From positions 736,001 through 800,000 of the forward strand of contig OZ245056.1 in the NCBI GenBank assembly GCA_965224705.1: 64,000 nucleotides of DNA. Direction: 5' to 3'. The stretch comes from Spirochaetaceae bacterium (lineage in GTDB: Bacteria > Spirochaetota > Spirochaetia > DSM-2461). The stretch's first letter is position 1. Each line of letters starts with the position of its first letter. The notes below the pieces were generated by a model. The model ran no database searches. It was not told the DNA's origin and saw only the letters and a program-made list of their open reading frames with translations. The position numbers were made by a program, and so were the translations under genes. Positions 3,846 to 54,164 of this stretch are shown here, piece by piece.

Positions 3846-5621
3846 ATGCCCGTTAAGCGATTCTGTCTTGTATGCGGTGATAACGGATGTCAATCCGGTG
3901 AAGACATCTACCGTAGTCTAAGAGCCGCCATTGAAGTTGCTGGCATCAGCGATGAAGTGCAGGTTGTGAAATCCGGATGTTTCGGCCTTTGTCAAAAGGC
4001 GACTATCGTCAGAGTTTTTCCTGAAGAAGCAATCTACGTTGGTGTGAAACCTGAAGATGCGGAAGTTATTGTCAATGAACATCTGTTGAAGGGTAAAATA
4101 GTCAACAGGCTGCACTACAAGGGAAATGAAGAGACAAAATCTGACGAAAATGTTAGAGACTATCAAAAGCAAAAGCGTCTGGTTCTTCGCAACTGTGGTG
4201 TGATTGATCCTGAGAGTATTGATGAATACATTGCCCGTCAGGGGTATGTCGGACTGGAGAAAGCTCTCTTCCAGTTATCCGGTGATCAGGTTATCGAGGA
4301 GTTGAAAATATCCGGTCTTCGCGGGAGAGGCGGTGCTGGATTTCCAACCTGGCTGAAATGGAAGTTTTCGGCTGAAGTTGAATCCGATACGAAATACATA
4401 GTCTGTAACGCTGACGAAGGTGATCCGGGGGCCTATATGGACAGATCTGTTCTGGAAAGCGATCCCCATTCGATACTTGAGGCCATGACCATTGCGGCGA
4501 AGGCTGTCCAGGCGGACCATGGAGTGATTTACATCCGTGCAGAATATCCACTGGCCATTAAGCGGCTGGAAATTGCCCTGGGGCAGGCCAGAGAATATGG
4601 ACTTCTGGGAAAAAACATCCTTGGAAGCGGATTCAGCTTTGACATAGAACTGCGGTTCGGTGCCGGAGCCTTTGTTTGTGGTGAAGAAACGGCATTGCTG
4701 GCCTCTACGGAAGGTAATCGTGGAATGCCCACCCCCAAGCCTCCCTTCCCGGCTGTAAAAGGTCTCTTTCAAAAACCAACTGTCATCAACAATGTTGAAA
4801 CTTTTGCCAACATTCCCCTCATCATTGAAAAAGGTGGAGCATGGTTTAAAAACATTGGTTCTGAGGGCTCTCCCGGAACCAAGGTATTTGCCCTGACCGG
4901 GAAAATTCAGAACTCCAGTCTGGTTGAAGTTCCCATGGGAACGACTCTGCGAGAAATCATCTATGATGTCGGCGGCGGTATCCAGAACGGCAAGAAGTTC
5001 AAAGCTGTTCAAACAGGCGGACCCTCCGGCGGAGTTATCACCACAGACTACCTTGATACTGCCATAGATTTTGATACCTTGAAATCCATCGGATCGATGA
5101 TGGGATCGGGTGGAATGATCGTCATGGACGAAGATGATTGTATCATTGATGTTGCCAAGTTCTACATGACATTCTGTGTGGATGAATCCTGCGGAAAATG
5201 TGCCCCCTGCCGGATCGGGACAAGGCGAATGCTCCAGATTCTGGACAAAATCAGCAAGGGAATGGGCAGGACGGAAGACATTGAAAAGTTGAAAAGCATT
5301 GGTTTGGCCACGCAAAAATCCTCCCTGTGCGGCCTGGGACAAACGGCTGCCAACCCTGTACTGTCCACACTCAAATACTTCGAGCATGAATACCTGGAAC
5401 ATATTACAGAGAAGAAATGCCGTGCGGGCAAGTGCAAGGCTCTTGTTTCGTACACGATTGATCCCCAGAAATGCATAGGCTGCACTGTTTGTGCCCGCAA
5501 ATGTCCGGTCCCCTGTATAACCGGTGAGCGGAAAACTCCCCATGTAATAGATCAAAGTAAGTGCATCAAATGTGGGATCTGTTTCGAGGTCTGTAAGTTT
5601 GGTGCGGTACAGGTTGCATAA
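3846..5621 (+). CDS. hndC: NuoF-like FMN/NAD(H)-binding subunit (HndC/HydB)
   Basis: GRGGAGFP, NADEGDPG, CGEETAL, ESCGKCAPCR, GGPSGG and a C-terminal 2x[4Fe-4S] domain. Confidence 0.95.
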   Translation: MPVKRFCLVCGDNGCQSGEDIYRSLRAAIEVAGISDEVQVVKSGCFGLCQKATIVRVFPEEAIYVGVKPEDAEVIVNEHLLKGKIVNRLHYKGNEETKSDENVRDYQKQKRLVLRNCGVIDPESIDEYIARQGYVGLEKALFQLSGDQVIEELKISGLRGRGGAGFPTWLKWKFSAEVESDTKYIVCNADEGDPGAYMDRSVLESDPHSILEAMTIAAKAVQADHGVIYIRAEYPLAIKRLEIALGQAREYGLLGKNILGSGFSFDIELRFGAGAFVCGEETALLASTEGNRGMPTPKPPFPAVKGLFQKPTVINNVETFANIPLIIEKGGAWFKNIGSEGSPGTKVFALTGKIQNSSLVEVPMGTTLREIIYDVGGGIQNGKKFKAVQTGGPSGGVITTDYLDTAIDFDTLKSIGSMMGSGGMIVMDEDDCIIDVAKFYMTFCVDESCGKCAPCRIGTRRMLQILDKISKGMGRTEDIEKLKSIGLATQKSSLCGLGQTAANPVLSTLKYFEHEYLEHITEKKCRAGKCKALVSYTIDPQKCIGCTVCARKCPVPCITGERKTPHVIDQSKCIKCGICFEVCKFGAVQVA

Positions 5622-5636
5622 TAAGGAGAGAATCTC

Positions 5637-7391
5637 ATGTCAATGGTCAATATAAAAATTAATGGTAAAGCCCACCAGGTAGAAGCTGGCACAAGCATTC
5701 TGGATGCTGCAAAGGCCTTTCAGATCAACATTCCCACATTGTGCTACCATCCGGATCTTGAACCATGGGCAGCCTGTGGGCTCTGTGTCGTCAAAGAGGC
5801 TGGTTCCCCGAAAATGATACGTGCCTGTGCCACCACTGTTGTTGAGGGACAGGATTACATCACTCACGACCCTGAACTCATGGAAGTAAGAAAAACAGTT
5901 TTGAAATTGATACACTCCAACCATCCTAATGAATGTCTTACCTGTGCCCGCAATGGTTCCTGCGAACTTCAGGATATTTCTGAAGATTTCTGTATCCGGG
6001 AATCAGAGTATCGAAAAGAACTCAAAGAACTTCCAGTCGATGCTTCCACAGCATCGATAGTTCTTGACCCCCGAAAATGCATTAATTGTGGTCGCTGTGC
6101 CCTTGTATGTCAGCAGATGCAGGATGTCTGGGCACTGGAGTTCACCAACCGGGGCTATAATACTGTGATTCAGCCTGTGGGTGGTGCCCTGCTGAGTGAA
6201 AGTCCCTGTATACGATGTGGTCAGTGTTCGGCCCACTGTCCTGTTGGAGCCATTTACGAGAAAGATGAAACCGATGATTTCCTTGATGCTGTTCAGGATG
6301 AATCCCGGCATGTTGTTGTGCAGATCGCTCCGGCAACCCGTGTGGCAATCGGCGAAGCCTTCGGTGAGAAGCCCGGTACCATTATGACCGGACAGTTGTA
6401 CGCTGCCATGAGAATGTTGGGTGCCAACGCTGTTTTCGACACAAACTTCGGCGCCGATTTAACTATAGTGGAAGAAGGAACAGAGCTGGTTCAACGCATC
6501 ACGGAAAAGAATAAGGGCCCATTACCCCAGATTACCTCCTGCTGTCCTGCCTGGACTGACTACATGGAAAAATACTTCTCCGATATGATTCCCCATTTTT
6601 CTACAGCCAAAAGTCCCATGATGATGCAGGGATCCATAACAAAAACTTACTATGCTGATAAAATGAAGGTTGACCCGGCAACCATCTACTCAGTGGCCAT
6701 CATGCCCTGTACAGCCAAGAAATATGAAATTGGGAGGAGTGATAACATGCAGTCCTCAGGGTATAAGGATGTGGATCTTGTACTCACAACCCGGGAACTG
6801 GCCCGGCTCATCAAACGGGCAGGCATTGATTTCCTGAATCTCAATGAGGAAAAAGCTGACAGTCCAATTGGAACGTATACTGGAGCGGGTACAATATTTG
6901 GTGTTACCGGTGGTGTAATGGAAGCAGCCCTGCGGACGGCTCATGCTCTTGTAACAGGTGAAGAGCTTAAAGACATCAATATCCATGCTGTCCGCGGCAT
7001 GGAAGGTGTGCGGACTGGAGAAGTTCCCGTTGGAGATGTTACTTTGAAGGTTGCGGTTGCCCATGGGATGACGAACGTCAGACAAATCATGAATGAGATT
7101 CGCCAGGCAAGGGAAAATGACGAGGAACCGCCTTATCACTTCATCGAGGTGATGGCCTGTAAGGGCGGCTGTATTGGTGGGGGCGGTCAGCCTTATTTCA
7201 CAGACGAAAAGATCCGTGAGCAGAGAGTGGCGGGTATCTACACAGATGATGAAAGGTGCGTGTTTCGATGCTCCCATCAGAATCCTGAGATCAAGCAGAT
7301 TTATAAAGATTTCCTTGGGGAGCCCCTGTCTCACAAGAGCCATGAATTGCTTCATACAACCTACACACCACGACCACTCTATCAAAGATAG
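5637..7391 (+). CDS. hndD: [FeFe]-hydrogenase catalytic subunit, group A (HndD/HydA)
   Basis: H-cluster motifs TSCCPAW, MPCTAKKYE and EVMACKGGCIGGGGQP; N-terminal Fe-S domains. Confidence 0.96.
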   Translation: MSMVNIKINGKAHQVEAGTSILDAAKAFQINIPTLCYHPDLEPWAACGLCVVKEAGSPKMIRACATTVVEGQDYITHDPELMEVRKTVLKLIHSNHPNECLTCARNGSCELQDISEDFCIRESEYRKELKELPVDASTASIVLDPRKCINCGRCALVCQQMQDVWALEFTNRGYNTVIQPVGGALLSESPCIRCGQCSAHCPVGAIYEKDETDDFLDAVQDESRHVVVQIAPATRVAIGEAFGEKPGTIMTGQLYAAMRMLGANAVFDTNFGADLTIVEEGTELVQRITEKNKGPLPQITSCCPAWTDYMEKYFSDMIPHFSTAKSPMMMQGSITKTYYADKMKVDPATIYSVAIMPCTAKKYEIGRSDNMQSSGYKDVDLVLTTRELARLIKRAGIDFLNLNEEKADSPIGTYTGAGTIFGVTGGVMEAALRTAHALVTGEELKDINIHAVRGMEGVRTGEVPVGDVTLKVAVAHGMTNVRQIMNEIRQARENDEEPPYHFIEVMACKGGCIGGGGQPYFTDEKIREQRVAGIYTDDERCVFRCSHQNPEIKQIYKDFLGEPLSHKSHELLHTTYTPRPLYQR

Positions 7392-7410: not shown

Positions 7411-8112
7411 TCAGTGCTCCAATGCAGCTTCCCGGGGCAGTGCCCAGTCAATAGCATTCAATCCCTTCTCTTCCAGCCATTGATTTGCCCTTGAAAATGG
7501 TCGGCTGCCGAAAAATCCCCGGGCTGCAGAAAATGGCGAGGGGTGGGAGGAGGATATTACCAGATGCCTGGAGCGGTCAATGAATACCCCTTTCGCCTGG
7601 GCATACGATCCCCAGAGGATGAAGACCGCCGATTTTTTTTCAGCATCCACAATTCGAATTATTTCATCGGTGAATTCCTCCCAGCCGCATGCCTTATGAG
7701 ATGCAGCCCTGTCTTTTTCCACTGTAAGGACGGAATTAAGAAGTAAGACACCCTGCCTTGCCCAGGGAATTAAACAGCCATGGGAAGCTGGAGGTATTCC
7801 AAGATCAGTTGAAAGTTCTGTGTAAATATTGGCCAGAGATGGGGGAATCCTGATTCCCGGCTGTACAGAGAAGGAGAGGCCATTGGCCTGTCCGCGTCCA
7901 TGGTAGGGATCCTGACCAAGGATAACCGCCTTGACTTCATCAAACGGGGTGTTATTGAGTGCGGAGAATATTTTATCTCCGGGCGGGTATATTTCCTTCC
8001 CGGCCTTCTTCTCCTGCAGAAGAAAACTTTTAAGTTTTTTCATGTAGTTTTTTTCAAATTCACCTGAAAGATAGGACAGCCACGATGGGTGGAGAGCTAT
8101 GTTCGCACTCAT
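7411..8112 (-). CDS. ung: Uracil-DNA glycosylase, family 1
   Basis: GQDPYH, IPPSL, GVLLLN and HPSPFS motifs. Confidence 0.96.
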
Positions 8113-9686
8113 GATGAATTCCCAGGAAATTCCATGGTGAAGACAGCTCCGCCTGAGGGAGAATTTCGGGCAGATACACGTCCGCCATAACCCGTTGCAA
8201 TTCCCTGGACTATGGCCAGACCAAGCCCTGTATGACTGGCTGCATTCTCCTCAGGTCTATCTGTATACCAGCGTTTGAAAATTTTCTGTAACTCGTGTTC
8301 CGGAATACCTGGCCCCTCATCGGATACGGATAAGCTCACTTTTTTGTCATCCCCTTCAATTCTCACTTCTACAACTCCATCGGCTGGGGAATAGGATACG
8401 GCGTTGTCAACCAGATTGAGAATGGCCTGAGTAAGACGGTCCGGATTAGCATTGATATACACTGGATTCTCAGACACATTTATGTATTCTATGGAGACAT
8501 CATTTTCATCATGCCGGGAATATGCTTCAACGAGGGTTTTCACCAGTTCACTAAGGTTAAGGGGGGCATGGTTGCCTTCATCGAGCCGTACATCGACGCT
8601 GATAAGTTCCCGAAGGTCATCCAGCAGACGTTGAATACGTCTGGCCTCCCTGTTGATTACCGTAAGAAAGCGGTTGGATTCGCCTGTAGCGGAATGCTCA
8701 GCCAGTTCAGCCGCACTGAGAATACCGGCGACTGGATTTTTTGTCTCATGAACCAGATCGGCTATGAAATCTTCCAGATGATTTGTTCTCTCCTGGAGGC
8801 GGGAGGAAAGCTTGTACAGGGCCCTGGAAAGGTCGGCTACTTCATCCTTACCCGAAAGGGGATTGAATTTTGCCAGAAGCTTTCCCCGGTCATCCAGAAG
8901 ACTCTCTGCCTGATCACGCAGCCGCCCGACTGGTACCGTAACGGTTCGGGCCAGAAGTATTGAAAGAATGATGGCCCCACCCACTCCGAAAAGAAAGATG
9001 TTCATGATATCCAGGCGAAGCCTGTAGAGATCATTGAGAATCACGAACGTGGAGCGGGAAACCTGAACAGCTCCGATGACTTCATCTTCCCATATAATGG
9101 GAATGGCCGAATACAGAGTAACCGATATCTGTCCTTCGGAAATTCGTGTCGCAGCACCATATCGGCCATCCAGAGCAGCCTTGATTTCCGGCCCATCCAG
9201 AACAGCTCTTCCAATGTAGAAATCAGTTTCAACCCGCGGTACCTGGGGAGGACGCACATAACCCGCCACCTGGCGAAAGATTCGAGCTGGCAGAGCACCA
9301 ATCTGATAGATGACACTCTCTTCGGGATAGGAGGTTTCAGTTGTGTCCTCCTCTTCAACTGCTTCCTGGTTTCGGGAGTTGATTTCAGGCAATTCCCCAT
9401 TTTGATCTTCGGATATGGCCGAATCAGCCAGCAGATATCCATCTTTGTCCACCACCCTTAATCGAGCATCGTTGCGGTCGCCTAATCGATTGAGTACGGC
9501 CCTCGCATCAGCCGCAAGATTTTCACCCGCCACGGCTGAAGCCAGAAGCCTGCCCTGCTGAACCATGGCACGTTCCTGACTGTCCAGAAGCTGTTCTTCA
9601 TAAGTCCCAAGGAAGAGAATTGCTCCCACTGGAAAGACGGCAAGAAGAAGGTTGAAAATCAACAGTCTTGCTGTCAGGCCCTTCAC
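8109..9686 (-). CDS. Membrane sensor histidine kinase (CreC/ChvG-like)
   Basis: Two TM helices, HAMP domain, H-box LVHETKNP, N-box NLVDNA, DEGPGI, GLGLAI. Confidence 0.9.
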
Positions 9687-10369
9687 TCTGCAATTCCAAA
9701 ACGGTAGCCCAGACCGTAAATCGTCTCCAGGATAGTTTTATCGGCACCTGCATTTTCAAGTTTCCGGCGAATTCTCTTTATATGGCTGTCCACCGCTCGT
9801 TCATTGATGAACTGATCCTCAGGGAAGGCGGCATTGTACAATGAGGATCTGGTGCACACTATTCCCGGTGAACCGGCCAGTTCCCGGAGCAGACGGTATT
9901 CACTCAGGGTAAAAACCAGTTCCTGACCATTCCAGAAAGCCTTGTAGCTTCCCGGGAACAGGGAAAGAGATCCCAGTTCAAGGGGAGCGTCGTCAGAAGT
10001 TTCACTTTCGGCTCGTCGGAAAACAGCTTTGATCCGGGCAATCAACTCCCGGATACTGAATGGTTTTCCAATGTAGTCATCTCCCCCTGTTTCAAGACCC
10101 ATTATCCGATCCAACTCCTCATCTCTGGAAGAAAGAAAAATGACAGGCGTTCGCGTATCTGTACTTCTGAGTAACCGGCAGAATTCCAGCCCGTCCATGC
10201 GAGGCATCAAAATGTCCAGGACATACAAATCGGGAGGATTCTTCCGGTATGCATCCCAGGCAGCCTGTCCATTTGGATATGTTGTTACCTGATATCCTTC
10301 CTTCGTCAGTGCATAGCCAAGATTGTCCCGAATGGTGCTTTCATCATCTACTACTGCTATATGCTTCAT
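9683..10369 (-). CDS. OmpR-family response regulator (CreB/ChvI-like)
   Basis: VVDDE, LDILMP, KPF receiver motifs; winged-helix DSHIKRIRRK and YGLGY. Start at 10369 (ORF extends to 10378). Confidence 0.92.
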   Translation of the reverse strand: MKHIAVVDDESTIRDNLGYALTKEGYQVTTYPNGQAAWDAYRKNPPDLYVLDILMPRMDGLEFCRLLRSTDTRTPVIFLSSRDEELDRIMGLETGGDDYIGKPFSIRELIARIKAVFRRAESETSDDAPLELGSLSLFPGSYKAFWNGQELVFTLSEYRLLRELAGSPGIVCTRSSLYNAAFPEDQFINERAVDSHIKRIRRKLENAGADKTILETIYGLGYRFGIAE

Positions 10370-10430
10370 AATCATCATTATATAGTATTTGTCTGAATAT
10401 TTTCACAGAATTGACAGAAAGGAAAACATT

Positions 10431-10478
10431 TTCCTGCCTTGTTTCTGCCATTTCTTTGCCCGGTTCTTAAACTATACT
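10431..10478 (+). promoter_or_regulatory. creD promoter with three 11-bp-phased direct repeats
   Basis: ttcctgcc / tttctgcc / tctttgcc with TGCC at 10435, 10446 and 10457, then TATACT at 10473-10478. Confidence 0.5.
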
Positions 10479-10510
10479 TAACGCATATCATTCTTAAGGA
10501 GAAGATTTTT

Positions 10511-11827
10511 ATGGGTACATTTCTTAAAGGAGCAGGTTCATCGTCTGTCGTCAGGATTCTTCTGATCATGGTGATGGTACTGCTGTTTCTCATCCCCCTG
10601 AATATGGTTGCTGATTTGATGAAGGACAGGAATCATCGGGCATCGGCTACGGCAGAAGAAGTGATTAATGGGGTCGGGGGAAGACTGGAATTCATCGGTC
10701 CCCTGTTCATTATTCCCTATACATCTGCCAAAATTGATTATCTGGGTATAACACGTACCACTCAGAACGAACTATATGTACTGCCGGACACCTTTCTTGC
10801 TGATGGAATTATGACAGCTGAGTACCTGTCCCGCGGGATTTACAGAATCCCGGTATACAAAACAAAACTGGAACTCGCCGGAACGGTCACCCTGCCATCC
10901 CCGGAGGCATTTCCCCAGGACGTCATCGTTCTTAACGATGAAGTTCGAATGGTTACCGGAATCAGAGACATGTTCGGAATACGAAATACGACTGATTTCA
11001 TATGGGAGACCGGCCAATATCCATTCAAACCGGAAGTTGGAAACTCGTTCATTGAATCGGGGCTTGCTGTAACCGGGCTTTCATTGCCGACTGACAGGCA
11101 ATCCGTTGAGTTTTCCTGGACGATGGAGATTGACGGCGGTGACAGTGTTTCCTTTCTACCCCTTGGGCGGGATTCTGAGTTATTACTTGAGGGGAACTGG
11201 CCTTCTCCATCGTTTCAGGGTGCAAGACTTCCAGATACCAGATCCTGGGACAGCGATGGGTTCCAGGCACAGTGGAGGATTCCCGAAGTGAGCCGCTCCA
11301 TTCAACCGTACTGGAACTCCGATGATGATACACAGGCAAATCTCAGGGATCATTTGATAAGGATTGAACTCCTTGAAACTGTGGATTCCTATCGTCAAGC
11401 CCTCCGATCAGTACGGTATGGTATATTATTTCTATTGATTCCCTTTGCGGTATTCCTGTTCGCTGAATTCTCCAGTAAAGTTAAATTTCATCCACTCCAG
11501 TATTTTCTTGCTGGAGCGGCGAATATAGTCTTCTTCGTATTGTTGCTGGCCCTCTCGGAACACTGGGGTTTCGATCCTGCCTATCTGACCGCCTCTACAG
11601 CAGTAACATTGCTGCTTGTCTTCCATGCAGGAAACCTTACAAAGAAACGAACTCTGGGCTGGGTGATGCTTCCGGTTCTGGCGGGGGCCTGGCTCTGGCT
11701 CTGGGTAAGTCTTCAATCAGAAGACTACGCCTTGCTGATCGGGGCCATTGGACTGTTTGTTATAACAGCCCTGATGATGGTGCTTGCCCGAAAAATCAAC
11801 CTGACGGAGGATCAATCTGAAGCATAA
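10511..11827 (+). CDS. creD: Inner membrane protein CreD
   Basis: LIPL N-terminal TM, RGIY.IPVY, NWPSPSFQG..LP, HPLQY, LLALSEH and SEDYALLIG motifs; AAGGAG RBS. Confidence 0.92.
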   Translation: MGTFLKGAGSSSVVRILLIMVMVLLFLIPLNMVADLMKDRNHRASATAEEVINGVGGRLEFIGPLFIIPYTSAKIDYLGITRTTQNELYVLPDTFLADGIMTAEYLSRGIYRIPVYKTKLELAGTVTLPSPEAFPQDVIVLNDEVRMVTGIRDMFGIRNTTDFIWETGQYPFKPEVGNSFIESGLAVTGLSLPTDRQSVEFSWTMEIDGGDSVSFLPLGRDSELLLEGNWPSPSFQGARLPDTRSWDSDGFQAQWRIPEVSRSIQPYWNSDDDTQANLRDHLIRIELLETVDSYRQALRSVRYGILFLLIPFAVFLFAEFSSKVKFHPLQYFLAGAANIVFFVLLLALSEHWGFDPAYLTASTAVTLLLVFHAGNLTKKRTLGWVMLPVLAGAWLWLWVSLQSEDYALLIGAIGLFVITALMMVLARKINLTEDQSEA

Positions 11828-12519: not shown

Positions 12520-13503
12520 GTGGATTCAAAATATAAGACATTGCTGGAATCTACGGTGATGTTTTCCAGCCTTACTTCAGATGATATGGATATCATCCTC
12601 TCTCTAAGTGATCAGATGAAGTTCAAAGATGGGGAGAAAATATTTCATATCGGCGACCCTTCAAATCAGTTTTTCATCGTTGCTGAAGGAGAAGTCACCA
12701 TCAGAACAGGTGAGGATTTAGGGCATCAAACAGATATTGCCCGTTTTTTGGCCGGTGACAGCTTTGGTGATCTTGAATTTTTTACGGCCGAAAAACGAAC
12801 GGCCAGTGCCATAGCTGTGGGTGAAACTCAGCTGCTGGGATTTCCTGACGAAAAGACAACTCTCTCAGAAATCATGGAGAAATGGCCAACTATAAGTGCC
12901 CGGCTTCTCCATGGTTTTTTGGTCCGCATATCATCCAGAATTCGCAAGGCAAATACCTTTGTCAAAAGCAATTCTCTTCTGGTTCAGGAACTCAAACGCC
13001 AGGTCTATGTTGACAAATTAACTGGTTTGTATAATAAAGTTTTTTTCGAAGAAACTCTTGGTAAACTTATGAAAAGTGAATCCACAGTTGGACTTCTTTT
13101 CTACAAACCAGATAACTTCAAAAAAATAAACGATGAGTACGGACATGAGGCAGGTGACAAAGTTCTTGAATTCATTGCCGGGGTTCTTCGAAAAAATGTT
13201 CCAGATCAGGATTTGCTTTTTCGCTACGCAGGAAATGAAAATGTGATAATACTCCCTGGAGCCACACGGAAATCTTTACGGGAACTGGCCGAAAGCACCC
13301 TTACACTCTTGAAATCACTCGATCTTTCATTGATTCTTCCTGGCATTGATTTCTCTCTTTCAGTAAGTTTTGGACTGTCTTTATACCCGGATAACAGCAG
13401 AGATATGACGGAACTCGTTGAAACATCCCATGCACTCATAATAGAGGGACGCTCTCGAGGAGGCAATCTCATTCTATCTCCAGAGACCAGGCGTATCTCA
13501 TGA
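12520..13503 (+). CDS. cNMP-binding domain plus degenerate GGDEF domain
   Basis: cNMP cassette GDSFGD..RTASA; DKLTGLYN, FKKINDEYGHEAGD; signature degenerate (RYAGNEN). Confidence 0.88.
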   Translation: MDSKYKTLLESTVMFSSLTSDDMDIILSLSDQMKFKDGEKIFHIGDPSNQFFIVAEGEVTIRTGEDLGHQTDIARFLAGDSFGDLEFFTAEKRTASAIAVGETQLLGFPDEKTTLSEIMEKWPTISARLLHGFLVRISSRIRKANTFVKSNSLLVQELKRQVYVDKLTGLYNKVFFEETLGKLMKSESTVGLLFYKPDNFKKINDEYGHEAGDKVLEFIAGVLRKNVPDQDLLFRYAGNENVIILPGATRKSLRELAESTLTLLKSLDLSLILPGIDFSLSVSFGLSLYPDNSRDMTELVETSHALIIEGRSRGGNLILSPETRRIS

Positions 13504-15641
13504 CAATTGACGCCCTCAATAGCCTGGATGTATTTACAACCTTAACCCCGGATGAAGTCTCTCGAATTTATAACAAGATGGAACATCATGATGTACCTGC
13601 AGGTGAGGTTCTTTTTCATGAAGGCGATCCTGGTAGTTTGATGTACATTGTCCAGTCCGGAAAAGTGGCCATAACAGTCAGCGTCAGTGATGGCGAAGAT
13701 ATTGAAGTGTCACAAATCGGAGAAGGCAGTTTCTTTGGGGAGATGTCAATCTTTGAGAAGGATGTCCGTTCCGCGACATGCCGGGCAATTGGGAAGTGTT
13801 CTTTACTTTCCCTGGATGAAACAGCTTTCCATGCCATTATGGAGGAGGAACCGAAAACTGCGATCAAAGTAATGCAGCAGATGCTCAATACAGCGACAAC
13901 ACGTTTACAGAACACGGACGGCTTCTTATCCGATTTGGTGAAATGGGGAGAGGAGTCCAGAATCAGGGCTGTCACGGATGATTTCACCGGTCTTTACAAC
14001 CGGCGTTTCTTTGATGAATCTCTTGAGAAAGCGGTGGCCGTATCAAAGAAGAATAATGTGCCTCTGTCCCTGGTTATGATGGATCTTGATAGATTCGGGA
14101 CTTTGAACAAAGTGTATGGTGAAGCCGTTGGTGACGAAGTTCTCCTTGCCATTATACCAGTCTTCCGCAGTGTTTTCGATGAATATGATATTCTTGTTCG
14201 TTACGGCGGAGATGAATTTGCGTTTATTCTGCCGGGTAAAGATGGTAAAACAGCTGTGGAACGATGCTTGAAAGTAGAAGGATTGCTTAAAAAAATCGAT
14301 ATACTGGATAAACTGAATGGCTCATTCAAGGTTATCAGTGGAAGTATCGGAATAGCTCAATGCCCCTTGCATGCAAAAACAACCCGAGACTTACTTGATA
14401 AAGCAGACAGGGCACTTTACGAAGCAAAAGAGGCAGGACGAGGACAGGTATCGCTCTTTGGCGAAAGCACGCTCCGGATGAAAAGAAAACTTCCAAACAA
14501 CTGGGTTAAGAATGCCCTGCTTGATTCATTTATTAATGCAATCTGTTCCAGAAATAATTTTCTGATTACCGGGCACAGGAATCCAGATCCAGACTGTATA
14601 GCCTCCTGTGTTGCATTCAGTCTCATCCTGGCCAAATTTTCAAAGAAAACGTCTGTCATCATCAATGAAGAGCATAAGAATGACTTCATCCACCTGGTCG
14701 ATCTTTGCCAGTCCAAGAATATACAACTGATAGAAACTCCTGAGGAGCTTGAAGACCACTATGATACCATTGTTATTCTTGATACACCAAAGCCCTCAAT
14801 GCTGGAATTCAGAGATGAGGTTCAGTCTCTCACAAAGAAAAAGGGTACTGTGTCGATGGAAATCGATCATCACATAGACGCAGATGGAACTTATATTGGA
14901 AACAAGGACTACTGTCTGGTTGATGCTGTTGCTTCAACATGTGAATTAATTGCTCATCTTTCACTTCGATTGTCAAAGAAATGGAGACTGTTGAAGCAGA
15001 TGAGTATAGGAAAATTGTTTACTCAGGATTTGCTCATGGCCGTTGTCACGGGAATAATGAGTGATACACATATGGGAAAGTCCATCAGCAATCGCATTGA
15101 AAAACGACATTATGTGACCTTTGAAAAACTTCTCAATCAGTCTCTTATCAATCCCTCTGAGAGTAATGACAAACGCCGAATATCTTCATCTCAGGATATT
15201 GCTGATCAACAAGGTTTACTGACAGAAGATGCAAAGGAATGCTATGAAATCTTTTCCAGGAATATTCAGAACAGGAATGGCATCTCGTACGTCGCCCTTA
15301 ATGAAAGCATCTCTGATGACTTATTTGAGCAGTTTGAAAAAAAGACTGTTACAGAAGTGGCAAAGTACACATCAAACATTCTGGCTGAAGACAATGGTTC
15401 TTTTTCTCTGGTTGCATTCTATGATTACAAAGCTGAATCCGATTTAATACAGCTTCGGATGCGGAGAAATCTCGATTTCTCCGGGCTGGATCTTCGCAGA
15501 ATCCTTGATCGATTTAAAATCGAAAATGGCGGCGGCCATGAAGGGGCCATCGGTTTTCGAGTCCCCCGATCTCAGATAACAGATCTGGAGGCATTTGTAG
15601 AGATGATACTTTTTGGGGCCATGGATTCAATCCGTCAATAA
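13500..15641 (+). CDS. cNMP-binding - GGDEF - DHH/DHHA1 phosphoesterase fusion
   Basis: FFGEM..RSAT; DDFTGLYNRR, RYGGDEF; DHH motifs GHRNPDPDC, ILDT, IDHH, STCEL, GIMSDT, GGGHEGA. ATGA overlap with the upstream gene. Confidence 0.88.
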   Translation: MTIDALNSLDVFTTLTPDEVSRIYNKMEHHDVPAGEVLFHEGDPGSLMYIVQSGKVAITVSVSDGEDIEVSQIGEGSFFGEMSIFEKDVRSATCRAIGKCSLLSLDETAFHAIMEEEPKTAIKVMQQMLNTATTRLQNTDGFLSDLVKWGEESRIRAVTDDFTGLYNRRFFDESLEKAVAVSKKNNVPLSLVMMDLDRFGTLNKVYGEAVGDEVLLAIIPVFRSVFDEYDILVRYGGDEFAFILPGKDGKTAVERCLKVEGLLKKIDILDKLNGSFKVISGSIGIAQCPLHAKTTRDLLDKADRALYEAKEAGRGQVSLFGESTLRMKRKLPNNWVKNALLDSFINAICSRNNFLITGHRNPDPDCIASCVAFSLILAKFSKKTSVIINEEHKNDFIHLVDLCQSKNIQLIETPEELEDHYDTIVILDTPKPSMLEFRDEVQSLTKKKGTVSMEIDHHIDADGTYIGNKDYCLVDAVASTCELIAHLSLRLSKKWRLLKQMSIGKLFTQDLLMAVVTGIMSDTHMGKSISNRIEKRHYVTFEKLLNQSLINPSESNDKRRISSSQDIADQQGLLTEDAKECYEIFSRNIQNRNGISYVALNESISDDLFEQFEKKTVTEVAKYTSNILAEDNGSFSLVAFYDYKAESDLIQLRMRRNLDFSGLDLRRILDRFKIENGGGHEGAIGFRVPRSQITDLEAFVEMILFGAMDSIRQ

Positions 15642-16094
15642 CGACGGGTGTACGGATGAGTGACCGCATTCCCCATGCGTTATTGCTTCCCGTAAATAAT
15701 CCGGCAGCGGTGTTGATTTTTCTGCCCTGTAATTGATCCAGACCATTTTGGAGTCTCCAGTTGCATACAGAGTGTTATCAGTTCCCTTGATTTCATACCA
15801 GGTCATTAAGCTGCTTGTTCCGGGGTCACCAACATACAAATGCACGAGAAGAGTGCATGGGTATACTATCTGCTTGAGAAATGTGCAGGATGCATTAATG
15901 ATAACCGGGCCGGTTTCTGACTGCCCGTCTATTGCTCCGAGATAACCGATTTCTCCCAGCCATTTTATGCGGGCTTCCTCACAATAGCCGAAGTATTGTG
16001 TATTGTTTATATGACCCAGAGCATCCATGTGTCCCCATGGAGGTGAAACAGAGTAGATGTAAACCTTTCTGGCATTGGGCGGAGGAAACTGCAT
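15627..16094 (-). CDS. Acyl-CoA thioesterase (4-HBT/YbgC-like hotdog fold)
   Basis: MDALGHINNTQYFGYCEEAR motif. Confidence 0.88.
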   Translation of the reverse strand: MQFPPPNARKVYIYSVSPPWGHMDALGHINNTQYFGYCEEARIKWLGEIGYLGAIDGQSETGPVIINASCTFLKQIVYPCTLLVHLYVGDPGTSSLMTWYEIKGTDNTLYATGDSKMVWINYRAEKSTPLPDYLREAITHGECGHSSVHPSLLTD

Positions 16095-28415: not shown

Positions 28416-29972
28416 GTGAATAGTCAGATTCACATGCATACAGAGAAGATCACACAAAACACAGAAGCCCTCCGCTGCTCAGTGAACGCCATCCTGGATT
28501 CAGAAACACGGGGGAAACTGGGGCAGTATATGACCCCATCAGCAACAGCACTGTTTATGGCCTCTCTCTTTCCTGAATCCACTCTCCCAGAACTGCGCCT
28601 ACTTGATCCTGGTGCCGGAATCGGGAGCCTCACCTCGGCTTTTGTCACCGAGGTGTCAAAGTGGAAGAACCTTGAGTTTCTGGAAGCCGATAGCTGGGAA
28701 ATAGACCCAACCATGCAGGAAAACCTCCGGCAGAATATGGAGTCTATCCAGAAAAGGGTCTCTTCTTTCTCCCTGTCCTATAATATCCATCAAGAGGACT
28801 TTATTGAATCGGTATCCCAGAAACTTGATACCGAAGGAGGGCTCTGGACGGAGCCGATCAAAAAATACACCCACTGTATTATGAATCCCCCCTATAGAAA
28901 GATACTCGCCTCTTCGCCCCATCGCCGCTGGCTGCGCTCTGCTGGAATCGAAACTGGAAACCTTTACACAGGGTTTGTGGCTCTGGCCTTGATGCTGATG
29001 GAAGAGGGCGGTCAGCTTGCGGCCATTATCCCCCGCAGTTTCTGCAACGGCCCATATTACCGGCCCTTTCGAGAACTTCTTTTGAAGAAATCAGCCATTC
29101 GCCATATACATCTCTTTGATTCCCGAAACAAAGCGTTTAAGGAGGATGGAGTACTTCAGGAAAACATCATTATCCTGCTGGAACGGAGCGGCTTACAGGA
29201 AGAAGTGACAATTTCCACCTCCAGTGATAACTGCTACTCTGATCATGAATCAAGAATTCTCCCTTTTGATCAGATAATATCCCCAGAGGACAAGGAGATT
29301 TTTATCCACATCCCACTCCCGGCACAAAAGGATCAAGCACCCGCCTTTACTTATCAGCGCCACCCCCTGGAATCCATTGAACTACAGGTATCAACAGGCC
29401 CTATTGTGGATTTCAGATTGAAAGAGTACCTAAAGTCCCTCCCGGAGGAAGCGACCGTTCCGCTCCTGTACTCCTGCCATTTCAAAGCCATGCGGACCAC
29501 CTGGCCTGTAGAGGGGAAAAAGCCGAACGCCATTATGAATAACAGGAAAACCTGGAAAGGATTTTTCCCCAAAGGATTCTATGTCGTTGTACGCCGGTTC
29601 TCTTCCAAAGAGGAAAAACGCCGAATCGTCGCCAGTGTGGTTACACCCGGTAGTTTTGCTGATTACGAATACCTGGCTTTTGAGAATCACCTGAATGTTT
29701 TTCACCAGAATAAACAGGGACTGGATGAATCTCTGGCCTGGGGACTGGCCGCTTTTCTAAACACAAAAACAGTTGATGAAGAGTTCCGGCTGTTCAGCGG
29801 TCATACACAGGTTAATGCCACAGACCTTCGCTCCATGCGTTTTCCGTCCAGTATTGTACTAAAGAGTCTGGGCGAGTGGGCAAAAAACCAGGCCGAATAT
29901 AACGATGATTCCACAGAAAAAAAATTGCGGGAAATAGAGCGATGGCAGAGCACAATAAAAACAGCCATATAG
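28416..29972 (+). CDS. Type II N6-adenine DNA methyltransferase, gamma class (M.PstI/M.BsuBI-like)
   Basis: LGQYMTP, motif I LLDPGAGIG, motif IV MNPPY, C-terminal FSGHTQVNATDLR. Confidence 0.92.
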   Translation: MNSQIHMHTEKITQNTEALRCSVNAILDSETRGKLGQYMTPSATALFMASLFPESTLPELRLLDPGAGIGSLTSAFVTEVSKWKNLEFLEADSWEIDPTMQENLRQNMESIQKRVSSFSLSYNIHQEDFIESVSQKLDTEGGLWTEPIKKYTHCIMNPPYRKILASSPHRRWLRSAGIETGNLYTGFVALALMLMEEGGQLAAIIPRSFCNGPYYRPFRELLLKKSAIRHIHLFDSRNKAFKEDGVLQENIIILLERSGLQEEVTISTSSDNCYSDHESRILPFDQIISPEDKEIFIHIPLPAQKDQAPAFTYQRHPLESIELQVSTGPIVDFRLKEYLKSLPEEATVPLLYSCHFKAMRTTWPVEGKKPNAIMNNRKTWKGFFPKGFYVVVRRFSSKEEKRRIVASVVTPGSFADYEYLAFENHLNVFHQNKQGLDESLAWGLAAFLNTKTVDEEFRLFSGHTQVNATDLRSMRFPSSIVLKSLGEWAKNQAEYNDDSTEKKLREIERWQSTIKTAI

Positions 29973-52343: not shown

Positions 52344-54164
52344 CTATTTGGGCCATAGTTTCACATTGATGGTTAACAGGTGACGGAACATTTCTGAACC
52401 GGCGACTGCGGTGAAGTTGTTCTTGTTGCCATAGTGAGAGTCATACTCATACACAAAATTGTATTGTAGTGATAACTGGACAGGAGCAAACAATCCCCGC
52501 AGGTCCACTGAGCCGCCAAGAGAAAAAATGTGAAACCACTCATAGGTGCCGTCTTTAAGGAAATTTTTGGTGCCGGATGGATAATACGCACCATTGGGAT
52601 CACCGTCCGGACCGCCAACAGCATCATATCCCCAGGCGTCATAGGTACTCCCGTTGACATCCGAACCGCCATGGCGAATCAGCCGGTATGAGAAACCGGC
52701 TGTCCAGGCAGGGGATGGCTGTATATGAAAGGCTATAAGAAATTCATCTGAATTGGGTTCAAGGTATGAACCGAGATTTTCGCCATGATTCTGATAGCCT
52801 GTTTCCATTTCCAGGGTGGGATCATCCGGATCTGAGTAATACCATGGTGTTCCGCCGGTAGCATAGTGTGTGTATGTAAATGGTTCAATTTTTGTATACT
52901 GAAAGGTGAATAGAGACCAGATTCCCATAGGAACAGCGACCTTGATTCCTGCCTGAACAGCCATCTGATTTCGCAGATCGGACAACTGGAAGCCTGGCTT
53001 CCATTCATCAACCAGAACAGTTCCGTAAGTCCGAAAAATTCCCGGCCAGCTTAACGCTATTGTACCACCAAAAACAACATTGTCAAAATCCCCCACATTC
53101 CCCTGTGTGAGAAGTCTGGACATGAAAGGAAACATGTATCCCAATTCAAAGCGTCTCAGGTATACAATGCCATCGTAGAGACTTATGTACAACCACCGGG
53201 CTGGCCTGATTTCCAATTGAAAGAGACTCAGCATATTCTGCTGGACTTTTGATACTTCCCTGGGACCCACCGTATAGTTATCACCACCCTCAACCGATGG
53301 ATATTTATTTGATACAAAGGGGCTGTTCCGAAAACTTGGAGCAGATTCCAAACTGCCAAACAGAAACGTCATGCTTAACCATTTCCAGGGAGAAACAGTT
53401 CCCTCCAGCCCCATGAATGGACGAGCTTGCTTATCAAGGAAAAGATTTCCTTCTCCCAATCCCCAGTCCCGCCGCATTCGGCCAAATCTAAAGCCTACTC
53501 GATTCTCCCATGCCGATAAGACCAGTTCGGTATGCATTGCCCATCCCATGGACAATTTTCCCGGCATGAGATATTGAGGCGATGGGTCCGACAAATGTCG
53601 GACACTTCCATCCCAATTCTTGGAATAAGTATACGGTGCCCAGGCATAGGGGTAGGGAGCATTATCATCAATGTGGATCCTGTTTAATTGGAACTGCAGG
53701 TCAAATCCATAGGAAAGATATTTGCCCATATCACCACTGAAAATACCTTTAACACTGTTTTGAATACCAAACTGACTTGTATCATTAACATCAACGTTTG
53801 ATTGGTGTTCGGCATAAAACTGCCAGTTCAATGGAAATACATCATGCTCAATTCGAAGATCCCCATCCTTAAGAAAAGGTTCCTCTTTGTCTTTGCCAAA
53901 ACGATCCACGTAATCATCCAGCACTGATTTTTGTCCAGCCGAGAATTCATCTCTGAAGTCTCCTAATTGCTGAAGTGCTCTCTTTATCCGGGATCGGGGC
54001 AGAGGCCTTGCCGCTGGGAGAGGGTCAATCATTCCTGATATCTCAGCAATTTCAAGCAGCCTGTAAAGGCTTTCTTCTTCCATTGGAATAGAGTTATGTG
54101 TCTGCGCATTTATACTGACAGCAAAAAGATATGTCAATAACAGGATCAGAATAGTGTTTTTCAT
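52344..54164 (-). CDS. Outer-membrane protein, capsule-assembly Wzi-like
   Basis: Signal peptide; [37 protein letters not shown]. Confidence 0.55.

Follow-up and report, generated by a model that had tools for sequence, protein, structure and literature searches.

A reciprocally degenerate pair of cNMP-GGDEF proteins in Spirochaetota as a candidate split GGDEF enzyme

Gene pair and domain content

We analyzed a 64,000-nucleotide stretch of a Spirochaetaceae bacterium genome (GenBank assembly GCA_965224705.1, contig OZ245056.1, positions 736,001 to 800,000 of the forward strand; hereafter the window), focusing on two overlapping genes whose products, P1 and P2, each join a cyclic nucleoside monophosphate (cNMP)-binding domain to a GGDEF domain. 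The two GGDEF domains have lost different residues, and the pair apparently represents a real, conserved, and undescribed split GGDEF enzyme. An earlier reading made from the letters alone (the sequence-only reading) had described two cNMP-GGDEF genes joined by an ATGA overlap, the second running on into DHH and DHHA1 domains. Both open reading frames are present, the motifs quoted from them all occur in the translations, and Pfam agrees, with cNMP (33-111) and GGDEF (PF00990, 163-316) domains over the cut-off in P1 and cNMP (32-116), GGDEF (PF00990, 157-315), and DHH (354-519) domains over the cut-off in P2. The DHHA1 match in P2 (615-702, E 0.007) falls below the cut-off, but its GGGH motif is invariant in 121/121 homologues, as are the metal ligands of the DHH domain, and the continuation into DHH/DHHA1 is thus upheld. 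The features are given below, with positions introduced by an equals sign or named as reference residues in the numbering of the diguanylate cyclase DgcR, mapped via alignment to 6ZXM. Residue counts refer to 174 de-duplicated Spirochaetota pairs (186 full-length pairs less 12 duplicates) unless another denominator is shown.

12520..13503 (+): gene 1, P1, 327 residues; cNMP domain, signalling helix, and metal-dead GGDEF domain; proposed acceptor subunit
12616..12852 (+): P1 cNMP-binding domain (Pfam); cassette partly relaxed (E84 163/174, R93 115/174)
12937..13014 (+): P1 signalling helix, R140-D165; 25 residues in 90/90 homologues
13105..13158 (+): P1 KPDNFKKINDEYGHEAGD; K196 stands at metal Asp D174; K201, D205, and H209 (= K179, D183, and H187) are invariant
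13222..13242 (+): P1 degenerate signature RYAGNEN; in the family, R, M, or K at the first Gly and N or D at the third position
13500..13503 (+): ATGA stop/start overlap of P1 and P2
13500..15641 (+): gene 2, P2, 713 residues; cNMP domain, signalling helix, GGDEF domain, and DHH/DHHA1; proposed donor subunit (metal, triphosphate)
13593..13847 (+): P2 cNMP-binding domain (Pfam); intact cassette G80-E81...R90-S91-A92
13902..13979 (+): P2 signalling helix, R135-D160; 25 residues in 90/90, equal in length to that of P1
14082..14135 (+): P2 DLDRFGTLNKVYGEAVGD; metal D195 invariant; G200, K204, and E208 replace K179, D183, and H187; N203 and D212 kept
14205..14219 (+): P2 intact GGDEF signature; D238 and E239 in 174/174
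14406..14441 (+): P2 D303 and Y307 (= partner contacts D282 and Y286) and K310 and R314 (= gamma-phosphate contacts K289 and R293)
14559..15056 (+): P2 DHH domain; H359, D363, D365, D428, D456-H457-H458, and D522 invariant in 121/121
15342..15605 (+): P2 DHHA1 domain with QxRxRR and GGGH680

The close linkage of the genes recurs among 91 pairs, with the overlap of four nucleotides in 45/91 and a spacing of 30 nucleotides or less in 85/91. One contig from a public run covers the entire stretch with 0 differences, although it may itself be the source of the window, and the unusual motifs of P1 and P2 are therefore not sequence errors; together with the recurrence of the pattern in 171/174 pairs under a strict test, this excludes a frameshift or decay artefact. 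Both genes are partly covered, at low depth, by contigs from the RNA libraries of a single study, which is not proof of transcription, and scans for promoters and terminators gave signals near the level of shuffled sequence.

Reciprocal residue sets and the pairing of P1 with P2

The roles of the residues compared here are taken from DgcR of Leptospira biflexa (PMC8041772), in which D174, E217, and E218 bind metal, K289 and R293 the gamma-phosphate, and N182 and D191 the base. In the modelled competent dimer of DgcR, the substrate of one subunit is acted on by K179 and metal M2 of the other; D183 and H187 are possible partners of Y286 and D282, and R147 may recognize the guanine across the interface (PMC8041772). 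For GacA, the fourth GGDEF residue is described as acting on the 3'-OH of the partner's substrate. As controls, we took the 30 best Pfam hits from each of three relatives' genomes, leaving out 1 duplicate and 2 non-intact domains of the 90. The resulting 87 intact GGDEF domains carry both sets of residues, with K179 in 87, D183 in 86, H187 in 87, D282 in 86, Y286 in 86, and R147 in 75. From an earlier scoring set of 104 loci, 5 were left out as duplicates and 8 as incomplete, and locus L225 (100 bases, empty) was dropped.

P1 carries Lys at D174 in all 174 pairs, a stronger result than the loss of the metal-binding Asp claimed by the sequence-only reading, and K179, D183, and H187 are each present in 174. 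Its guanine pocket is retained (N182 in 171, D191 in 173; N204 and D213 here, both within KPDNFKKINDEYGHEAGD at 13105..13158), and its partner contacts are gone, with Y286 in only 8 pairs and D282 in 0/90 in the first scoring and outside the six commonest residues at that position in the 174 pairs. The triphosphate motif, described earlier as lost, is indeed altered (K289 to R in 158/174, R293 to G in 170/174), but is better called remodelled than erased.

P2 is the reverse, with D174 in 174, E217 (as D) in 174, E218 in 174, R147 in 173, D282 in 173, Y286 in 170, K289 in 172, and R293 in 163. K179 survives in 3, D183 in 19, and H187 in 61, all three together in none; Arg (96) or Gly (54) commonly occupies the K179 position, and P2 of the window has G/K/E at the three sites. 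The contrast first proposed, K179/D183/H187 kept by P1 yet lost from P2, is therefore borne out against controls that have both sets, and the complementary pattern is conserved in homologous pairs (171/174 under the strict test). A second reciprocal set, D183/H187 on P1 against D282/Y286 on P2, had been overlooked. Taken together, the residues of P1 and those of P2 make up one canonical half-reaction.

The distribution of the family bears on whether the two halves belong together. Of 8000 candidates scored, 341 are relatives of full-length P2 at E<=1e-20; wherever an organism name is listed, it is from Spirochaetota, and one named homologue is from Oceanispirochaeta crateris. A P1 profile (E<=1e-60) matches in 107/401 sampled Spirochaetota genomes, a threshold that P2 can also reach, and 216/217 of the domains cut out with it fit the strict Lys motif. 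Among 50%-identity representatives, the Lys motif of P1 occurs in 121/130 matches of up to 700 residues, and where a name is given, it is Spirochaetia or a Treponema sp. The P1 profile was used to cut out 119 loci, and in 100 of these P2 either follows immediately or is part of the same protein. A search through P2, using motifs that lie outside the active site, found 79 loci, 73 with P1 upstream, and 4 of the other 6 are too near a contig edge. Each of the two patterns thus recurs in loci selected via the opposite half. A quick tree, built on every third row (114/341) with 30 controls, places the P1 GGDEF domains in one group (Shimodaira-Hasegawa-like approximate likelihood ratio test 99) and the P2 GGDEF domains in another (84), and does not resolve whether the two are sisters. 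Genome G327 has three P1 and three P2 genes, one of each being unlinked, and genome G000 retains the pair while having just one other GGDEF protein, which we count in favor of the pairing. In Treponema denticola, TDE2725/TDE2726 may be an adjacent cNMP-GGDEF pair, although TDE2725 did not occur in the papers listed by a literature search.

Support for pairing also comes from twelve natural fusions of P1 and P2 in a single chain, with the order cNMP-GGDEF(P1)-cNMP-GGDEF(P2) and 647-672 residues, one of them being L210:4266-6218; longer fused forms (686-2000 residues) were searched for and none was found, which is weak evidence. In both proteins the signalling helix spans 25 residues, from a conserved Arg as far as the DxxTG turn, which fits the need of an in-register parallel dimer. 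On the basis of the reciprocal residue sets, their conservation, the equal helices, and the fusions, we consider P1 and P2 to be probable partners in an obligate heterodimer of parallel arrangement, which would amount to a split GGDEF enzyme retaining a single functional half-site. The obligate one-site heterodimer of the sequence-only reading is in this respect well supported, while the assembly itself is something we infer, the donor and acceptor roles being assigned from the published DgcR dimer model.

Several points weigh against this assignment. The controls, as the best Pfam scorers, lean to consensus, and the 174 pairs are related by descent and are not independent trials, so that the counts overstate independence. 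The contacts across the DgcR dimer derive from a hand-built model and are worded there as "may interact" (PMC8041772), and the DgcR and GacA papers disagree on the role of E218. Covariation between the proteins across the 174 pairs (effective number 141) was uninformative, giving scattered top pairs, its intraprotein control being noisy too. P1 stands without an adjoining P2 in 19/119 loci, and two P2 loci (L067 and L080) lack P1 in the 5.8 kb that precede them. The linker of the fused forms leaves about 13 residues between domain ends, and pairing may therefore be between chains. Finally, the substitutions in P2 are conservative (R + E/D + H at K179/D183/H187) in 49/174, and such a P2 might act alone.

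It could accordingly be argued that P2 is active as a homodimeric diguanylate cyclase in which R or G is tolerated at K179, and that P1 is catalytically dead and regulates it by hetero-association, whether as inhibitor, activator, or nucleotide receptor. The conservative set in 49/174 P2 proteins, the 3 that keep K179, the orphan P1 copies, and the two P2 genes without an adjoining P1 would all suit this arrangement, and regulatory GGDEF heteromers have been discussed for E. coli (PMC5635695). We consider it unlikely, as K179 is present in 87/87 controls whereas P2 of the window has G/K/E and Gly replaces K179 in 54/174, and as a mere inhibitor needs no invariant K179, D183, H187, N182, and D191 while losing D282 and Y286. 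The fusion, moreover, sets a 1:1 stoichiometry.

Some loci depart from the simple pair. P1 copies without an adjoining P2 include L233, L235, L237, and L242 and 15 more. Genomes G115, G426, and G309 have two P1 genes and one P2, which suggests alternative partner subunits. The idea that the pair is the only cyclase of genome G000 was dropped, as a canonical PAS-GAF-GGEE protein exists. In a set of paralogous pairs (L231, L239, L241, L243, L327, L328, L331, L333, L336, L337, L339, L340, L343, and L344), the base-binding D191 of P2 is replaced by Asn and the Arg of its cNMP cassette is lost, possibly reflecting another donor base and another input, and such pairs may make mixed-base products. 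Other P2 variants combine S or G at N182 with N at D191 (L228, L229, and L270, also L093 and L271), and the first three are the only P2 proteins among the 174 that have K179. Atlas clusters in which Acidobacteriota is the commonest phylum also matched P1 and the DHH domain, which we regard only as a lead.

Product, cNMP input, and the DHH/DHHA1 domain

As the reciprocal residues are conserved, everything needed for attack on P2-bound GTP by the 3'-OH of a P1-bound nucleotide appears to have been kept. In the mechanism that we propose, P2 would bind Mg-GTP as donor through D195, D238, E239, K310, and R314, and P1 would bind a second guanine nucleotide without metal through N204 and D213, with K196 and R311 holding its phosphates. 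R168 of P2 would read the base of the P1-bound nucleotide, K201 of P1 would be lent to the alpha-phosphate of the donor, and D205/H209 of P1 would dock on Y307/D303 of P2. The mirror-image half-reaction would be disabled on both subunits, and one 3'-5' bond would consequently form per binding event, giving pppGpG and pyrophosphate as the predicted direct products.

Whether pppGpG is then released is finely balanced. Release of a linear dinucleotide as the end product is a tentative choice. In its favor, the metal site is blocked throughout the family despite the hindrance to ring closure that should result, the hydrolase linked to the pair belongs to a class that includes enzymes of linear dinucleotides, and the RxxD inhibitory site (I-site) is relaxed, occurring at canonical spacing in 99/174 P2 proteins against 82/87 controls. 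Alternatively, the same heterodimer could have cyclic di-GMP (c-di-GMP) as its end product if pppGpG were released or turned over and then rebound in an orientation that places the triphosphate on P2 and the 3' G on P1, so that the single site closes the ring; the DHH domain would then remove c-di-GMP or a linear intermediate that has leaked. This too is a plausible though doubtful outcome, and the two are about even, with linear release slightly ahead.

Cyclization would accommodate the I-sites that remain in the family (10/10 of the fused forms scored, besides those in P2) and the guanine-type base pockets on both proteins in 142/174 pairs, N182/D191 being present in both proteins of the window. 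There are also precedents, as purified pppGpG reportedly serves WspR as a substrate (PMC2270323, "unpublished data") and cGAS and DncV rotate their intermediate and complete the ring within a single site (PMC6456294). Genome G000 encodes a PilZ protein (RxxxR...DxSxxG motif) and an HD-GYP protein, but these could be served by its canonical cyclase. The absence of a DHH profile match from 20/106 genomes with P1 would likewise suit c-di-GMP. Against it stand the family-wide half-site loss with Lys blocking the metal site, which should handicap ring closure, the relaxed I-site, absent from both proteins of the window, and the nature of the linked hydrolase, which is DHH (relatives include TM1595 and NrnA-type proteins) and not EAL or HD-GYP. 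The sequence-only reading had noted the lack of an RxxD I-site, which is true of both window proteins and not of the family (RxxD occurs in 49/174 P1 proteins); its suggestion of a linear product instead of c-di-GMP is plausible without being much favored, given that most P2 proteins keep the I-site and that re-cyclization of pppGpG has been reported.

The input would be a cyclic mononucleotide, probably cyclic AMP (cAMP), which would bind mainly to the intact pocket of P2 and gate the dimer through the signalling helices, although this is a weaker part of the proposal. G80, R90, S91, and A92 of the P2 cassette are present in 91/91, and in the larger set R90 is found in 158/174 and S91 in 157/174. 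If, as we assume from the CRP numbering, T139 of P2 corresponds to the cis base contact and N145 of P1 (148/174) to the trans contact, the combination points to cAMP in the pocket of P2. In genome G000, cNMP could come from the products of four genes that match class III cyclases.

The DHH/DHHA1 domain would cleave the dinucleotide, again a weaker step in the scheme. The binuclear-metal ligands, DHH motif, and GGGH motif expected of such phosphoesterases (reference ligands in PMC11229311) are present in P2 and in 121/121 homologues. Among solved structures, TM1595, GdpP, 9R7O, and NrnA-type proteins come closest, at E 1e-10 to 1e-5, but the distance is too great to define the substrate, and substrate preferences vary between members (PMC11229311). 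Among the 174 pairs, DHH is fused to P2 in 39, is a separate adjacent gene in 51, and was unseen in the fetched stretch in 84. Its profile occurs in 86/106 genomes with a P1-profile match, where 28 would be expected by chance if kin were independent, which they are not. As the profile finds no DHH in 20/106 P1 genomes and 21 genomes have DHH without a P1 match, DHH is an associated partner of the pair and not an obligatory part. A search with a loose threshold in five of these 21 (G131, G109, G245, G275, and G112), which include a 1.1-Mb genome at 99% completeness, did not turn up the pair. That the DHH family persists in such genomes indicates a role of its own. The suggestion that DHH serves as eraser is likely, with a looser coupling than was implied.

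The resemblance of P2 to GdpP, which also carries GGDEF and DHH/DHHA1 in a single chain, raises the possibility that no dinucleotide is made and that the pair is instead a GTP/cNMP sensor, or a GTP-to-GMP pyrophosphatase, controlling DHH or another target in the manner proposed for the degenerate GGDEF domain of GdpP. GGDEF domains able to give GMP from GTP are known (PMC7825114). This is the least probable of the explanations that we considered, as the full residues of a bond-forming half-reaction are conserved across P1 and P2 and DHH is often unlinked or not found. The scheme that we tentatively favor is hence a cAMP-gated split GGDEF heterodimer that makes pppGpG (pGpG if the acceptor is GMP) as a linear messenger, with a dedicated DHH/DHHA1 eraser.

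Around the pair, a 160-residue open reading frame immediately 5' of P1 (11959-12441, +) has no Pfam match, and homologues occur in 4/223 loci, many of which have short flanks. The 3' end of P2 overlaps a convergent thioesterase gene (15627-16094, -) by 15 bases (15627-15641). Clustering of open reading frames at loci L026-L104 yielded, as conserved neighbours, just antisense shadows of the module and lineage-local genes. Elsewhere, the window encodes a NuoF-like flavin subunit beside an [FeFe]-hydrogenase large subunit (3846-7391, +), presumably a bifurcating-hydrogenase layout; a sensor kinase and response regulator divergent from a CreD gene (8109-11827); an Eco57I-type methylase domain among polysaccharide-biosynthesis genes (28416-29972, +); and a 606-residue open reading frame without a Pfam match (52344-54164, -).

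Comparison with known systems

A split GGDEF pair of this kind was not found in the full-text literature searched, which largely leaves out subscription journals, so that a domain-level mention may exist; the available parts of PMC10118264, PMC6005682, and PMC7825114 contain no such system, and PMC5635695 treats GGDEF heteromers as regulatory. Symmetry between identical subunits is generally taken for granted in GGDEF enzymes, and GGDEF domains that are degenerate are regarded as receptors or regulators. The P1/P2 family suggests a third state, in which two noncanonical domains complement each other into one enzyme that motif-based annotation would miss or mislabel. The pair also divides the conserved GGDEF residues by whether they act in cis or in trans, which puts the hand-built model of the competent dimer to a natural test and bears on whether each of the two bonds of c-di-GMP can form without the other. 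If the linear end product were true, it would be a categorically new nucleotide signal in a quarter of the sampled Spirochaetota genomes.

Homodimeric diguanylate cyclases (DgcR, PleD, WspR, and PadC) share with P1 and P2 the GGDEF domain, the DxxTGxxNR turn, and the N182/D191 pocket. They carry all residues in each subunit and build two half-sites, whereas P1 and P2 are each incomplete and only one half-site can be built. Assignment as a canonical diguanylate cyclase fails on both counts, as P1 lacks the metal ligands (Lys at D174 in 174/174) and P2 lacks K179/D183/H187 (3, 19, and 61 of 174). XC_0249 of Xanthomonas campestris, a cGMP-stimulated cNMP-GGDEF protein, has the same architecture and likewise links mononucleotide to dinucleotide signalling, but it is one gene, active alone, and without DHH (PMC3770947). 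Its N145/E146 cGMP dyad (PMC3770947) is not evident in the pair, which has the C-helix residues T139-G/S140 in P2 and T/A144-N145 in P1 at the positions that we infer to match.

GdpP (transmembrane-PAS-degenerate GGDEF-DHH/DHHA1) resembles P2 in the order of GGDEF and DHH/DHHA1, and the DHH profile matches GdpP structures at E 3e-10. P2 differs in having a cNMP domain in place of the transmembrane and PAS regions, intact GGDEF acids, a need for a partner GGDEF domain, and a DHH that in the family is often a separate gene. Membership of the GdpP family was rejected, since Pfam finds cNMP and no PAS, GGDEF_GdpP is below the cut-off for P1 and unlisted for P2, and the P2 signature is intact. The stand-alone DHH/DHHA1 proteins TM1595, NrnA, DhhP, and Rv2837c have metal ligands and the DHH and GGGH motifs in common with P2. 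The pair-linked DHH is unlike them in being a distinct family of about 390 residues, with one copy per genome in 108/401; three of its members score 26.8-39.1 bits against the NrnA equivalog NF053633, whose cut-off is 350, and G000 also has a separate DHH of 340 residues.

Complementary half-sites in a nucleotide cyclase have a precedent in the C1/C2 pseudo-heterodimer of mammalian adenylyl cyclase. The Hypr GGDEF enzyme GacA, cGAS, and DncV offer further parallels to what is proposed here, in symmetry breaking and in the use of one active site with a linear intermediate. A Hypr (cGAMP synthase) assignment was rejected, as it needs Ser at D191 and loss of the cross-dimer Arg, and the pair keeps D213 in P1 and D212 and R168 (173/174) in P2. 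GacA is homodimeric and its base pocket is changed, and cGAS and DncV have another fold, whereas P1 and P2 would divide a single GGDEF half-reaction between two proteins, which sets them apart from each of these enzymes, none of which is a split GGDEF pair.

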